DNA of 64,000 bases, taken from positions 597,290 to 661,289 of the forward strand of contig CAWFGE010000008.1 in assembly GCA_963815195.1 (NCBI GenBank), given 5' to 3'. Positions 28,294-52,141 of the stretch are shown one piece after another; within the stretch, counting starts at the first letter, position 1, and every line of letters begins with the position of its first letter. The DNA is from an uncultured Planctomycetaceae bacterium (GTDB lineage Bacteria > Planctomycetota > Planctomycetia > Planctomycetales > Planctomycetaceae). The notes under the pieces were generated by a model. That model did not search any database. It was not told the origin of the DNA and saw nothing but the letters and a program-made list of their open reading frames with translations. The position numbers and the translations under genes were made by a program.

Positions 28294-28520
28294 AGCCGCG
28301 TCGCGGCGACAGCATATCGCTGCGGGCGTAAGCCCGCAGAATGTCTCAAAATAGATATGAAGCCGCGAAGCGGCGATAGCAACGGATTGATAGGGACTTG
28401 CGATCTGCTTCAATGCAACTCGTGACAAAATCGCTGTCGCCGCTTCGCGGCTCTCGACACTTTTTTTGCTCAGTTCCTTGGGCTTACGCCCAAGGCTATA
28501 TGCTGCCGCCGCTACGCGGC
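28294..28520. repeat. Composite palindromic REP-like element
   Basis: AGCCGCG(T/A)(C/A)GCGGCGA and GGGCGTAAGCCC units on the left, mirrored by TCGCCGCTTCGCGGCT and GGGCTTACGCCC on the right. Confidence 0.8.
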
Positions 28521-28732
28521 GAAGACAAGAGCCGAATTCCACCGATCCATTTATCCGAAGCCAATCTAAGCTTAGAATCCTGACTCTTGGCTTTGGAATC
28601 CGCTCGCAAATACCTGCCAGGCCGTGTATAAGGTAGTGTTCCCTTCATGCGAGGAGATCGAACGATCCGAGCGCAAATTGCATCGATCACACAGAGAAAA
28701 CGGTTGGCGGGAAGGCGTTTGAGGTCGGACAT

Positions 28733-43840: not shown

Positions 43841-44224
43841 CTATATTTGAAATGGGGTAGATTTCCCATTCTGCTGCACAGTTGCAAATGTCCCTTTGTT
43901 TACGTTACTCGCAAATCCGTGAATCATTGGCCATCGTTGAACCATCCAGGTCGCTTGTCTCCAAAAACCCAATTTACCCCAAAATCGTCCGATAAACAGG
44001 GCGGTAATCCCAGATTCTTTAAGCAATTCGGCCTCAATGACTCTGTGTTTCATGTGTTTTTCAGCCGTGACCAACACATAATTTGAATGCTTGAGTTCTC
44101 TAAGCAAATCTGGATCTTTGATGTGCTGATCGAAAACTTCCCGCAATGCTCGAACATCAACATCAAGAGCACGCAGCATCTCTGCGAAATTGTAGCTGAT
44201 ATTGTTGTCGAAAAGATAAGTCAT
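43841..44224 (-). CDS. PIN-domain toxin (DUF5615/VapC45-like)
   Basis: YLFDNN, KDPDLL, LVTAEK; 4-bp overlap with the upstream DUF433 gene. Confidence 0.8.
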   Translation of the reverse strand: MTYLFDNNISYNFAEMLRALDVDVRALREVFDQHIKDPDLLRELKHSNYVLVTAEKHMKHRVIEAELLKESGITALFIGRFWGKLGFWRQATWMVQRWPMIHGFASNVNKGTFATVQQNGKSTPFQI

Positions 44225-44895
44225 GCACTCAGCGATTTATTGAATTGAATCGCTGCCTGAACGGCCTCCAATGGAATCCCAAGCCACTTGGCGACGACAT
44301 GCACTTCCTGTCCGTCACCTGCTTCAAGTGCATCAATTATTGTTTCAACAGGAATGCCGCTGTCAAAGTCGATGGGCTGACCATGCTTTCGCAATGGGTC
44401 AAGAACAATTCGCCCTCTCGTGCCAAGCGGCCAAAACTGTTCCAGCGTCATCCCATCATATTTGAGCTTACGAAAAAACGGTCGTATGATCGTTTTGAAT
44501 ACGAGTTGGCCGTGTTTTAATTCTTCGACCACTTCGTTGTCGGACTCTTTCCCGATCAGAGTGGCGAAAATCGACCTTCCGTCGGTGTCAAATCGTTTTA
44601 CCGTGAAAGGGTATGCTGATCGAAACTTCTCAGAAGCGACGTTTGCGGCTTTGCGTATCGTTTGAAGCGAGACGTTCTCGTCTCGAAACATTTTGACGAA
44701 ATGGAGTTCCATTAACTCGGCAAACGTCAAAATCTCCATCGCTGGAAACTTTCGAGCCACGATTGCCTCACAGCCTCGTGGTTCGCTTAGCCAATACCGA
44801 AGCGTTCTGTATTGGATGCCGAGAATCCTTGCGGCCTGCGGGATGTCGTAGACACCTTGGCCTAATAATTCAATGGTTGATGGGTTCTTCGCCAT
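44221..44895 (-). CDS. HTH + DUF433 antitoxin (VapB45-like)
   Basis: GVYDIPQAARILG HTH, LTFAELMEL, IVLDPLRKHGQP, VQAAIQF. Confidence 0.85.
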   Translation of the reverse strand: MAKNPSTIELLGQGVYDIPQAARILGIQYRTLRYWLSEPRGCEAIVARKFPAMEILTFAELMELHFVKMFRDENVSLQTIRKAANVASEKFRSAYPFTVKRFDTDGRSIFATLIGKESDNEVVEELKHGQLVFKTIIRPFFRKLKYDGMTLEQFWPLGTRGRIVLDPLRKHGQPIDFDSGIPVETIIDALEAGDGQEVHVVAKWLGIPLEAVQAAIQFNKSLSA

Positions 44896-45198
44896 TTGAT
44901 TTTGTGGGAATGAGAAACTGGAATTGCAATTTAATCGCAGAAAGGTGGCTGGTCAACAAAATGCGGTGAGGATTGCCAAAGAATCATATCATGCGCATGT
45001 TCACTGGTCAACATCCAGCGCCGACCAAACTGGTACAGTTTGAATTTGAAATAGACACCACCCAAGAAGCGGTGGTGTCCGCGTTTGATTTCGGGTTTTG
45101 AGCGTTCGGCGCGGAATTTGCTAGCCGCAATTGCCTTTCAAATAATAGAGAAAGCCGGGTTTGTTGCATCAGCAGGCCAGGCTTCTTTTTTATTCAGC

Positions 45199-45227
45199 CG
45201 GCCTCAGCAATTGCTGAGGCCGTTTTT
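45199..45227. promoter_or_regulatory. Perfect 24-bp palindrome (operator or terminator)
   Basis: CGGCCTCAGCAATTGCTGAGGCCG followed by TTTTT, between divergent genes. Confidence 0.5.
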
Positions 45228-45334
45228 AATGGCTGATTTTTTTTGATTTTTTTATGAAAATCAGACGGTTGATTCAGATTAGTTCGCTGGCTACAATTCA
45301 ATTCCCTGGATAGTCAGGGGAAGGGGGAACTTAT

Positions 45335-45799
45335 ATGTCGAAAACTGAACAAGCGGTTCGCGCTCGAATCTCGAATCTTCAAGAGAAAATCGAAAAATCA
45401 CAAAAGACCGAAGATGAATTGAGAAGTGAAATTGGGGCACTTCAATGCGAACTTCAGAACGAATTGGAAGAACGGCAATTCATATCGGCTTTGCTACGCG
45501 AGTTGCTGCAAATCGGGGCAGAAGCAGGTATTTTGACGGAAGGCAACGGTGTCAAAATACCCCCTAAAAAGAAAGCATCTGCGGCCGTCCTCGATTACTT
45601 ACGGATGCATCCGAGTGGCGCGACGAGCAGTAGAATTGCAGATGATTTGAAGGATTTAGTCGATACTCAATCTGATAATAAGCGATCAATTATCTTTTCT
45701 GCGGTATTCAATTTAAAGAAGAACGCAAAAATTGTGTTCGATGAGGATACAGAAAAATACTCATTGCCTAAAAAAACCGACGATTCTCAAGCGGAGTGA
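45335..45799 (+). CDS. Hypothetical protein, N-terminal coiled coil and C-terminal winged-helix-like domain
   Basis: Heptad-rich N-terminus; AVLDYLRMHPSGATSSRIADDL...IFSAVFNLKK...YSL; AT-rich codons. Confidence 0.7.
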   Translation: MSKTEQAVRARISNLQEKIEKSQKTEDELRSEIGALQCELQNELEERQFISALLRELLQIGAEAGILTEGNGVKIPPKKKASAAVLDYLRMHPSGATSSRIADDLKDLVDTQSDNKRSIIFSAVFNLKKNAKIVFDEDTEKYSLPKKTDDSQAE

Positions 45800-46077
45800 G
45801 AATCGTCGGTTTGGTAGTTAACTCCGCAGTCCGCCGGTTTCCAGGTGGGAAGATTTGGCGATCAGATCACCTGGGAATCGGCCCTTTTTCACGGAGGTTC
45901 GACGATGGAGAATACTCCGCCGCCGCCACTACTACCTTTTTGGTGTCACCTGATACGATGGCAATTCACGGCCATGATCGGTTCAACCAGGGAGAATAGC
46001 AGCATATCCGCTAATCTCCATTTTGTCTAATTATCGACATTTCTTGGAATGCACTCGTGCATACGGTGCATTCCTTT

Positions 46078-46179
46078 GGAGGGATGGCAGAATGGCATTG
46101 CACGGGTCTTATAATCCCAGGTCCGCGATAAACCGTTGCAAGTGAGATCGCGGTGCAGGTTCGATTCCTGTTCCCTCCG
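46078..46179 (+). tRNA. Atypical tRNA: UAU anticodon, long variable arm, Ser-like acceptor, no encoded CCA
   Basis: Acceptor GGAGGGA/TCCCTCC+G; D arm GCAG/TTGC with GG; loop CT-TAT-AA (46108-46114); variable stem CCGCGAT/ATCGCGG; T arm GCAGG-TTCGATT-CCTGT. Confidence 0.85.
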
Positions 46180-46209
46180 TCTAATCTTATGCACGAAGAA
46201 GCATTTAAG

Positions 46210-46314
46210 TCAATCGGCTTTCTTTCTCGCTTCGTTTAAAAGAATGGTGCGCGCCCATGTTGATGTTCTTCCACTGGCGGCAGCATCAAGTTGGGTGCTG
46301 CGGTGGCCCTGCAC
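46210..46314 (-). pseudogene. 3' fragment of a small ribbon-helix-helix-like gene truncated at the IS3 end
   Basis: Own translation ...QLDAAASGRTSTWARTILLNEARKKAD*; abuts the IS left end. Confidence 0.4.
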
Positions 46315-46393
46315 TGTGGTGGACCCCGAAAACTGGACAGCCCAATAAGGTAGAATTTGCGATGTTCATTTGTCGCATTGGGAGGTTCCGATT

Positions 46394-46684
46394 ATGACCA
46401 GGAAGCGTCGAGTTTTGGGGTCCGCGTTCAAAGCCAAGGTGGCGTTGGCGGCGGTCAAAGGGGATAGGACGACGGCTCAGTTGGCGTCGGAATTTGGCGT
46501 CCACACGAGCCAAGTCACGGCTTGGAAAAAGCAGTTGTTGTCGGGAGCCACTGAGTTGTTCACGGATGGCCGACGTAAGCGATCCGACGATCAATCGGCC
46601 AATGAGCAAGAACTCTATGAACAAATCGGCCGGCTGAAAATGGAAGTCGAGTGGCTCAAAAAAAAGTCGCTGACGCTGGATTAA
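46394..46684 (+). CDS. IS3 transposase OrfA (HTH)
   Basis: FKAKVALAA, LASEFGVH, WKKQLL, LYEQIGRLKME; A8G slippery site at 46658-46666. Confidence 0.93.
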   Translation: MTRKRRVLGSAFKAKVALAAVKGDRTTAQLASEFGVHTSQVTAWKKQLLSGATELFTDGRRKRSDDQSANEQELYEQIGRLKMEVEWLKKKSLTLD

Positions 46685-47499
46685 GCCACGAGGTTTTGCG
46701 GGCATGGATCGAACCGAAGCATTCCACGTTGAGCGTGTCGCGTCAGTGCGATCTGTTGGGATTGGCGCGGAGCAGTTGGTACTACGAACCTGGCGGCGAG
46801 ACCGCGGAAAATTTGGAACTGATGCGGCGAATCGACGAGGAATACACGCGGCATCCGTTTTATGGTTCTCGCAAGATGGCCGAGTTGTTCGGCGTGAATC
46901 GCAAGCGAGTGCAGCGGCTGATGCGGCAGATGGGAATCGAAGCGGTTGGACCGAAACGCCGCACGACCAAACCGGGGCGCGGACACAAGATTTACCCTTA
47001 TTTACTGCGGAATGTGGAGGTTCTCCGGCCCAACCAGGTGTGGTCGAGCGACATCACTTACATCCCGCTTCGCCACGGGTTTTTGTATCTCGTGGCAGTG
47101 ATGGACTGGTTCAGTCGCTACGTGTTGAGTTGGCGATTGTCGAACACGTTGGAGGGGAGTTTTTGCTTGGAGGCGTTGGACGAAGCCTTGTCGATCTCGC
47201 GGCCGGAGGTCTTCAACAGCGACCAGGGCAGCCAATTCACGGCGATCAAGTTCACCGAGCGATTGGAACGATTGAATGTCGCGATCAGTATGGATGGAAA
47301 AGGACGGTGCTTGGACAACGTATTCATCGAGCGGCTGTGGCGGAGCGTGAAATACGAAGAGGTTTACTTGAAGGATTACACGGATGGTTGGGAGGCCGAG
47401 AGAAGCCTGCAGAGTTACTTTGAGTTCTATTGTGAGGAACGGATTCATCAGTCGCTGGGTTATCAAACGCCGGCGATGATCTACGAAGGAAAAGATTGA
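46651..47499 (+). CDS. IS3 transposase OrfB (DDE), reached by -1 frameshift
   Basis: WSSDITYI, NSDQGSQF, DNVFIERLWRSVKYE; -1 frame relative to OrfA. Confidence 0.93.
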   Translation: MAQKKVADAGLSHEVLRAWIEPKHSTLSVSRQCDLLGLARSSWYYEPGGETAENLELMRRIDEEYTRHPFYGSRKMAELFGVNRKRVQRLMRQMGIEAVGPKRRTTKPGRGHKIYPYLLRNVEVLRPNQVWSSDITYIPLRHGFLYLVAVMDWFSRYVLSWRLSNTLEGSFCLEALDEALSISRPEVFNSDQGSQFTAIKFTERLERLNVAISMDGKGRCLDNVFIERLWRSVKYEEVYLKDYTDGWEAERSLQSYFEFYCEERIHQSLGYQTPAMIYEGKD

Positions 47500-47717
47500 A
47501 GCCTGCACAAAGTGATGGACGAAAAATGAAAACAAGTTTCGCGCAAAACCGGGAGGGAACTGGTGAGGTCTCGTCCCGGGCCCCTTGTCATCGGCGGCAG
47601 ACGACGAGGCCTATGAGGGGCCTCGTCTGCCGCTGACTCACACCACTAAACAACCCCGTTTGCTGTCCAAAGAATGGGGTCCACCTCATGGAACAAAATT
47701 CCAGAATGGACATGAAA

Positions 47718-47770
47718 GATCGCAAAAGAAAAGCCCCGTCTCGGATCGACGGGGCTTTTCTTTTGCGATC
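47718..47770. terminator. Bidirectional terminator-like hairpin (perfect 23-bp IR)
   Basis: GATCGCAAAAGAAAAGCCCCGTC / GACGGGGCTTTTCTTTTGCGATC. Confidence 0.75.
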
Positions 47771-48378
47771 TCCCGGCCAATCATTCAGCCAGAAGGCAAA
47801 TTTTTTTGGGAAAAATCAAATTAGGACACTACCCAAGAAGCGATGCGTCAGAGTTTCCTAAAAACCAACTGTCCCATCAGCCCCATTCCTCGCCATTCCC
47901 CCATCGGAAATCCGCGGGAGGTCGGGTTGGGTATTTTGCGGGGGACGCTAGGGGTTGGCGGGGAGTTGGCCGGTGGCGGGGTTCTTTAAGGCTTTTCTGA
48001 GTATAGGGTTGCGCTTCTGATTTGGCTCCGAATTCCGGGGCCGTTTTTTTGACCGGGGGCTGGAATGGGGTAGAGTTTCGGTGTGACAGGCTCGAATCAA
48101 CCCGGCGTTTTAATCTGTCAGGACTTGCCTGACATGAACGTTTATCGCCTTGTCCGGGCCGAGCATTTGTTAGGATTGAAACATTAGGAACAGATGGTTT
48201 TTCGATGGGAAAACAGATCACCCCCGCGCGATTCTTTCCGGCCCGTTCCGAGGAAGCGGCCCGGCGAAGCTCACCAGCACAACCGCGGGAACCGTGATCT
48301 TGCCTTTGGCCCCGTTGAATGCCGGTTCCGGAAAATCGTCGACACCAATCACGCCGTTTGTATCGAAAACCTTGGGAG

Positions 48379-50328: not shown

Positions 50329-50493
50329 TTTCTCTCCATGCAGTCCGGCGAGGGATACCGGATGCGGGCCGTTCGGTTTTTTTGAGGAAGAATTGGCATT
50401 TTTTTCAAACCCGGGTGAAACGCCCAGGTGAGAACGGTCAATTTTTACCAGGGCCCCATGCGAGAATCCTACCGACCTTTGGGAGGTTTAAGA

Positions 50494-52141
<1,648 letters not shown>

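Follow-up and report, generated by a model that had tools for sequence, protein, structure and literature searches.

The closest described relatives of the gene reported here are the allo-tRNAs, bacterial tRNAs with a long variable arm, G73 or U73, a non-Ser anticodon and stem-weakening changes, which lie near transposon and toxin-antitoxin genes and fold as 8/4 or 9/3 cloverleaves with a tRNA-Sec-like long D stem and a tetraloop. UAU is their commonest anticodon according to the accessible parts of the original report (Mukai et al. 2017, PMC5389517) and of a review (PMC7609411); the same parts of the report record that six allo-tRNAs(UAU) showed no activity in E. coli after conversion to amber suppressors, that two were toxic and that induced allo-tRNAs killed E. 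coli, and they mention neither a placement inside insertion sequence (IS) ends nor a link to transposase AUA codons or to CRISPR. Ser-tRNAs with foreign anticodons are described there, and in the available text of PMC6125640, as miscoding and killing. A UAU anticodon for AUA is also found in the Mycoplasma mobile tRNA-Ile(UAU), which an adapted IleRS charges with Ile in a cell without TilS; the accessible sections of that study add that E. coli IleRS charges UAU poorly and that, on ribosomes of the E. coli type, UAU without modification may decode AUG as well (PMC3575796). In CreTA modules, a small RNA gene between cas genes is accompanied by a degenerate repeat-spacer that matches its promoter, and the known CreT classes in the parts of these sources available (PMC8501985; bioRxiv 2024.01.05.574328; 2026.06.02.729485) are tRNA-sequestering mini-ORF RNAs, a KilAC protein and proline-codon RNAs, none of them a tRNA, with one known CreT also acting at AUA. 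In the literature searched, of which the accessible portion included few subscription papers, we found no 7/5 Ser-bodied UAU family, no tRNA-transposase codon coupling and no tRNA acting as a CreT.

The gene lies in a stretch of 64,000 nucleotides (the window) from an uncultured Planctomycetaceae bacterium (Table 1). An initial annotation had read it as a serine-type tRNA with an Ile anticodon, and every structural feature listed there (cloverleaf, pairs, G73, UAU, mismatches and a 35-nt variable region with a 7-bp stem) was confirmed on the sequence and by a match to Rfam RF00005 over its whole length (49.1 bits, E = 1.8e-7, gathering score 29). The 102-nt gene has a fully paired acceptor stem (7/7, including G1-C72, G2-C71, A3-U70 and G4-C69), a D arm of the tRNA-Ser type with a 3-4 bp stem and C11-G24, and a T stem of five pairs, the first of them G.U, and does not encode CCA. 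The anticodon stands at 46110-46112 on a stem that contains G30-C40 and G29-C41 and is mismatched at C27.A43 and U31.U39, and the variable region covers 46120-46154. Because an eighth acceptor pair would be U.U, the fold is 7/5, and 8/4 is ruled out. The bacterial Ser identity set, tabulated in the accessible part of PMC9976931, which also gives Ser identity as independent of the anticodon, is complete (G73, C72, G2-C71, R4-Y69, C11-G24, G30-C40 and the large variable region), whereas G73, G4-C69, G29-C41 and the 35-nt arm are all non-Ile and rule out Ile identity, so that the proposed Ser-type body holds.

Set beside bacterial (class II) tRNA-Ser, the gene has all identity elements and differs in its Ile anticodon, a D loop 2-3 nt shorter, the length of its variable region and its mobile location; its 5' half resembles the tRNA-Ser(UGA) of relatives. 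Unlike an Ile body of the M. mobile type, it lacks A73, the short variable loop, C4-G69 and C29-G41, and its host has a TilS-family gene. With the allo-tRNAs(UAU) it shares the long arm, G73, a non-Ser anticodon, a weakened stem and the proximity of transposon and toxin-antitoxin genes, but it has the 7/5 fold and an ordinary tRNA-Ser D arm. The contrast that had been drawn with allo-tRNAs therefore stands for the fold only and fails otherwise (UAU is their commonest anticodon, the neighbours are of the same kind, and both forms occur in the same IS1595 slot, as described below).

Gene finders handle this form poorly. ARAGORN gave no call at default settings, and with introns allowed (-i) it reported tRNA-Asn with a 30-nt intron, a reading ruled out because the variable arm covaries as a stem; the tRNA was thus confirmed by Rfam and not by ARAGORN, which had been among the proposed checks. 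For annotation at large, ARAGORN overlooks long-armed forms, and the remaining forms are labelled tRNA-Ile. Folded alone, the RNA is mildly more stable than shuffled versions (z = -1.9, 8/200) and its minimum-energy structure differs from the cloverleaf, whose energy ranks 58th among the 105 members of the UAU family described below. No clear sigma-70 promoter was seen directly 5' of the gene.

Table 1. Features at and around the UAU tRNA gene (window coordinates)
Feature	Position	Strand	Remark
MerR-HTH/DUF433 and PIN toxin-antitoxin-type pair	43841..44895	-	
Right terminal repeat of an adjacent IS1-type element	45042..45062	-	Abuts left duplication
Left 8-bp target-site duplication, CAAGAAGC	45063..45070		Same CAAGAAGC on right side
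Left terminal inverted repeat	45071..45091	+	17/21 identical to right repeat
Cargo ORF, 154 aa, coiled coil and probable winged helix	45335..45799	+	Without Pfam family
Perfect 16-bp hairpin, terminator-like	45774..45812		At end of cargo ORF
10-bp leader hairpin, ends 3 nt 5' of tRNA	46046..46074	+	Recurrent in UAU family
tRNA gene, Ser identity elements, anticodon UAU	46078..46179	+	Direct reading and Rfam
Ribbon-helix-helix-like small gene, C-terminal half	46210..46314	-	Cut at IS3 end
IS3-family element, multi-copy in genome	46315..47688	+	Occupies place of IS1-type transposase
24-bp terminator-like hairpin	47717..47771		Inside right end
Right terminal inverted repeat	47813..47833	-	20/21 identical to that of intact element L375
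Right 8-bp target-site duplication, CAAGAAGC	47834..47841		Same as left

The initial annotation, which on the whole we find partly supported, had overlooked that the gene is enclosed by an IS1-type element (45071-47833) with an 8-bp target duplication, and that its family goes together with AUA codons in the transposase of such elements. Cargo-carrying members of the IS1 and IS1595 families, to which the term 'mobile insertion cassette' is applied, have terminal repeats starting with GG, an 8-bp duplication and passenger genes, all of which are present here, whereas a transposase is absent. A repeat pair with an 8-bp duplication arose in 0/500 shuffles. The cargo ORF has a weak match (E = 0.009) to an ORF upstream of family member L202, and the regulator remnant 3' of the tRNA was the only match among 1657 window frames (E = 1.9e-5) to a profile built from 16 relatives, the small regulator gene having been extracted for 16/24. 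In L375, which is intact and comes from the host's family, the tRNA is followed by a small convergent regulator gene and then by the transposase. No IS1-like transposase was found in the element or the host genome with one profile and two protein queries, and no target duplication flanks the IS3 element, whose insertion, we infer, went together with deletion of the transposase. The element is thus non-autonomous, having no DDE transposase of its own, and the window tRNA, with no partner transposase found in the genome, is an orphan copy in a broken element.

The left end of the neighbouring element was not found. A homologue of the MerR-HTH/DUF433 and PIN pair lies inside the IS1-like element L388, and the pair in the window is probably cargo of this neighbour. 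All three genus mates (G070:C40, G130:C29, G154:C5) carry the same IS1-type right repeat once each; in G070 and G130 it stands upstream of dnaG, 21 bp from a conserved motif, as in the window (45042-47841), with a Panacea-domain gene and a transposase fragment as cargo in the former, two tandem repeats in the latter, and no tRNA upstream of dnaG in either. This site is possibly an insertion hotspot at which elements are stacked end to end.

Searches of GTDB, metagenome and phage sequences yielded 104 other distinct Ser-bodied UAU genes, or 105 with the window copy. The GTDB pattern (Ser-type D arm, UAU loop, long arm) gave 90 matches, of which 54 passed a fold filter; left out of all counts were the other 36, duplicates, 7/106 distinct metagenome matches (among those listed) that failed the same filter, and three long-armed UAU genes from phages whose last acceptor pairs are broken (L036, L039, L045). 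GTDB members span Planctomycetota, Acidobacteriota, Chloroflexota, Proteobacteria, Bacteroidota and others. The acceptor stem, G73 and the T arm are kept almost perfectly across the family, an invariance in part imposed by the search pattern and the fold filter, although G73 also occurs in 51/57 members found without fixing base 73. As had been proposed, homologues were examined for covariation, and the stems do covary: among 32 long-armed members the score is 0.56 vs. 0.16 in shuffles (0/500) and 13/20 free pairs change on both sides, and in the 12-member short-D-loop subgroup pairing in the variable-arm stem is 100%, and 3/5 of its pairs are compensated. Variable arms reach 38 nt, and a perfect leader stem of at least 8 bp precedes 36/105 members vs. 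3/104 control stretches and 5/97 host tRNAs. The anticodon stem is broken at pair 27-43 in 36/105 members and at pair 31-39 in 11/105, a recurrence which makes the weak stem, correctly seen in the window copy, a family trait rather than a mark of decay.

We also assessed whether the anticodon of such homologues is random, using a metagenome scan for Ser-identity bodies in which 24 non-Ser anticodons were allowed (at least 120 rows). Among the matches listed, UAU accounts for 61/120 rows (52/106 distinct), followed by GAU (17), GUU (9) and UAC (5), with the six one-step neighbours of Ser anticodons at 2-4 each, while UAU itself lies two steps from any Ser anticodon. These counts support a selected rather than random UAU in the sequences scanned. 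Since the window copy matches this family, sequencing error is an unlikely source of its anticodon. Searched with any anticodon, the short-D-loop pattern matched only the host genome among 398 genomes of the order and 401 of the phylum; a DNA similarity search of 150 genomes of the host family returned only generic tRNA fragments, and the exact 5' pattern had no match in viral contigs.

Several related forms were seen alongside the family. Eleven Ser bodies carry GAU, GUU, UAC, CAU or GUC (L159, L161, L168, L197, L149, L178, L193, L150, L199, L183, L169); seven of these loci adjoin the same transposase families, with L169 and L178 inside terminal repeats. Four Ser-type bodies have a much enlarged anticodon loop (L177, L184, L206, L259), and at six loci (L095, L110, L071, L113, L092, L064) the UAU gene has a second tRNA gene, for Cys, Ala, Ser(ACU) or Thr, as its immediate neighbour.

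Among the neighbours of the 104 other loci we found an IS1595 or IS1-like transposase (matching DDE_Tnp_IS1595 or DDE_Tnp_IS1) at 37, cas genes at 10 and neither at 57; restricted to the 49 loci with 1.5 kb on both sides, the counts are 24, 8 and 17. Terminal repeats with an 8-bp duplication surround the UAU gene at 12/37 IS-linked loci, many of which are too short to contain them, and likewise surround it in 18/19 elements chosen by their transposase. Judged by these arrangements, the UAU gene is one of the conserved parts of IS1-like and IS1595 elements that carry cargo.

The transposases themselves bear on the role of the tRNA. In those from carriers of the 7/5 tRNA, we found 8 ATA-fixed columns where 0.41 were expected in one family and 8 where 0.47 were expected in the other (0/1000 permutations each, a significance overstated, as is that of the prospective set below, because the elements are kin), while the control codons GTA, ACA and GCA gave 0-2 fixed columns. 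Within the IS1595 clade analyzed (median identity 48%), GC3-matched counts put ATA at 60/255 Ile codons in carriers vs. 5/136 in controls; L279, which carries an allo-type UAU gene, was moved out of the tRNA-free controls for both counts, and L292, which carries one as well, stayed among the controls in these counts and in the residue fits below. For a prospective set, 52 IS1-like transposases were chosen by protein similarity and a UAU gene was sought within 1.5 kb by profiles: ATA is present in 25/25 transposases with a UAU gene vs. 13/27 without a detected one, with GC3 equal between the groups and GTA not raised. An earlier association test (ATA in 23/153 vs. 52/453 Ile codons) was weak because its detector missed many UAU genes. 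The transposases of such elements, as far as their codons tell, keep AUA, often as AUA-AUA, at fixed places.

Residue fits gave a more nuanced picture. At the conserved IS1595 ATA columns, which are polar and where homologues have Ser, Thr, Ala, Gly or Lys, Ser fits better than Ile (-1.6 vs. -6.0), as do Ala, Lys and Thr, and an ATT control shows the opposite (Ser -10.5 vs. Ile -1.2); the conserved IS1-like columns are ambiguous (Ile -3.0 vs. Ser -2.2), and across all ATA columns Ile is slightly ahead of Ser (-10.2 vs. -12.4; -5.3 vs. -7.0). With each column counted once, the polar shift is not significant (odds ratio 1.7, p = 0.25 and 0.42). The fits leave a full AUA-to-Ser reassignment unsupported; by this codon evidence, AUA is specially kept in these transposases, partly at non-Ile sites, without clean reassignment.

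The UAU genes of the prospective set are mostly allo-like with a long D arm, together with two of Ala type and one of the 7/5 Ser type. The 22 allo-like loci (L365-L402 and L292) have their UAU genes upstream of IS1-like transposases, several with an altered T loop; ARAGORN misses most of them, and L292 also falls below the Rfam gathering score. The two short tRNA-like UAU genes beside IS1-like transposases (L374, L383) have A73, G3.U70 and a reduced D arm, and appear to be Ala-type AUA readers. Further, an 8/4 allo-tRNA(UAU) lies in an IS1595 element found by its transposase alone, and that transposase shares 70% identity with the transposase of an element that has the 7/5 form. Going by these marks, what stays constant across bodies is a UAU loop on a body of a kind charged regardless of anticodon, and the 7/5 form, although not an allo-tRNA by fold, would work in the same element slot.

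In the host, AUA is rare, as had been stated: at 1.87 per 1000 codons it is the second rarest codon, present in 39% of 3395 long ORFs (a crude ORF set). The normal route for reading it, also anticipated, is in place, with a TilS-family gene (PF01171, E = 2.4e-53) and an A73 CAU tRNA, beside four housekeeping tRNA-Ser genes, one GAU and, in an array, a short-armed A73 UAU gene; because of these, the host does not need the long-armed UAU tRNA. The host's tRNA arrays (G000 C5:30370-31947, C8:349717-352883, C12:573209-575422) contain short-armed Leu, long-armed Ala(UGC) and normal Ile(UAU) genes, and elsewhere three tRNA genes have anticodon loops of 6 or 8 nt (G000 C21:28857, C16:6206, C20:220635).

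Starting from the observed location, family, conservation and AUA coupling, we propose that the tRNA, charged with Ser, is a portable reader of AUA which frees the element's own transposase from a brake set by AUA codons, and that an excess of it is toxic; we give this reading a probability of roughly one half. The tRNA would be processed, CCA-tailed and charged with serine by host SerRS, and could serve as an AUA decoder in any host because SerRS ignores the anticodon; with E. coli IleRS poor on UAU and Ser identity independent of the anticodon, a Ser body would solve the charging problem. AUA codons would slow transposase translation, as we propose, because the host's lysidine tRNA is scarce, and the element's own tRNA would read them and insert Ser at tolerant sites, so that transposase output would hinge on tRNA expression. 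The same tRNA would miscode host AUA codons and be toxic at high level, a proposed reason why some type I CRISPR loci may have captured it behind a CRISPR-repressed promoter; the orphan copy in the window would cause at most weak AUA miscoding. The Ser- or Ala-type marks of the other bodies in the same slot favor the decoder reading, and against it stand the six inactive allo-tRNAs(UAU), the slight overall lead of Ile, the 13/27 transposases with ATA without a detected UAU gene, the 17/49 loci with neither IS nor cas genes, and viral contigs, where UAU makes up only 1/6 of Ser bodies with a non-Ser anticodon.

More broadly, and tentatively, at a little short of an even chance, two IS families may run a private code layer in which an AUA-reading tRNA on anticodon-blind bodies and transposase AUA codons together switch transposition by decoding, with type I CRISPR-Cas having repeatedly captured the tRNA as a CRISPR-repressed mistranslation toxin, a CreT class undescribed in the literature searched. 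The proposal would give the most abundant mismatched bacterial tRNAs (UAU) a testable purpose, a question open since 2017. If true, it would mean a new control of transposition through codon-tRNA coupling inside an element, a natural case of deliberate mistranslation that mobile DNA spreads, and a toxin that guards CRISPR and is itself a tRNA; attempts at AUA reassignment would likewise have natural Ser-charged readers of that codon to take into account.

The sign of the effect could also be the reverse, with the tRNA inserting Ser or stalling at transposase AUA codons and spoiling the protein, such that transposition falls as copy number rises and orphan copies could still damp incoming relatives. 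Consistent with this, 26/57 ATA cells stand in hydrophobic columns, one column of the AUA cluster that follows the YSP motif in IS1-like transposases is otherwise Cys, Val or Met, and a well-folded gene has been retained in an element that has no transposase. Such a brake is nonetheless unlikely given that the conserved IS1595 ATA columns are the polar ones described above, and that the IS1-like cluster, often ATA-ATA, slides along a tolerant stretch and marks no single critical residue.

Rather improbable, in our view, is a non-elongator role, in which an uncharged or poorly used RNA binds or stalls at AUA or draws off anticodon nucleases or modifying enzymes as a decoy. The inactivity of allo-tRNAs(UAU) in E. 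coli, the recurrent 27.43 mismatch, the longest variable arms, the altered T loop of several allo-like members and the PIN-domain gene next door would all fit such a role. Yet the near-perfect acceptor stem, G73 and T arm would be needless for a mere decoy, and the residues at transposase AUA sites are shifted toward small polar ones, as would be the case were a different amino acid inserted there.

The cas-linked relatives raise a further alternative, namely that the tRNA is a toxin or anti-phage cargo which miscodes the AUA-rich mRNA of invaders or kills when derepressed, with transposase AUA a side effect. Ten members either stand first in a cas operon or separate two cas genes, namely cas6 from cas3/cas8 or cas3 from cas8, and at 7/10 a spacer adjacent to a repeat matches the upstream promoter as in a mini-CRISPR, a layout like that of CreTA. 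The best promoter-region match starts right behind the repeat-like end at L074, L125, L132, L127, L119 and L116, and by eye at L124, with the score reached in 3, 1, 0, 0, 4, 10 and 5 of 300 shuffles, respectively; because 4/70 non-cas loci reach 0/300 in one of four orientations, the score alone is indecisive and the position behind the repeat is what counts. No repeat-adjacent promoter match was found at L108, L129 or L133. CRISPR arrays with the same repeat end occur in the genomes of L127, L124 and L132, that of L125 has two single matches, and none were found for L074, L119, L116 or L133. In having a degenerate repeat-spacer unit that matches the promoter, these seven relatives also resemble the cas mini-arrays of bioRxiv 2023.03.03.530964; the window copy is without CRISPR link.

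Besides these loci, the cargo alternative draws on family neighbours such as HicA, YafQ, Panacea and HI1420 genes, on the lack of visible ATA enrichment in the cas genes, and on the killing of E. coli by induced allo-tRNAs in the available part of that report. We nevertheless judge it distinctly improbable, as transposases subject to such a side effect should lose AUA, which is instead enriched and fixed in them; in addition, the targeted promoter also drives cas genes, which the accessible literature describes as known autoregulation, and the window locus has no cas gene, mini-array or mini-CRISPR match. The defence role raised by the initial annotation is plausible only for the minority in cas operons and has no sign at the window locus.

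A decaying pseudo-tRNA-Ser with a chance anticodon, or an assembly error, is scarcely credible and for the family largely refuted: two anticodon-stem mismatches (only 5/105 members have as few as 3/5 pairs), a broken element, the absence of sequencing reads over 46078-46179 and the absence of the short-D-loop form from 397 other genomes of the order and 400 of the phylum in a pattern search speak for it, but UAU, two changes from any Ser anticodon, dominates among the matches listed, the short D loop, the long arm and UAU recur in 11 close relatives that show compensatory changes, and the leader hairpin and regulator remnant stand in the family arrangement.

Two features elsewhere in the window were also recorded. 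The rpoD gene (50428-52141) is split over two frames, with region 1.1 in ORF 50428-51531 and the rest in 50765-52141, through either a frameshift or an assembly error, and an Acido-Lenti-1 RNA (Rfam RF01687, 49.7 bits) is located at 28476-28521.
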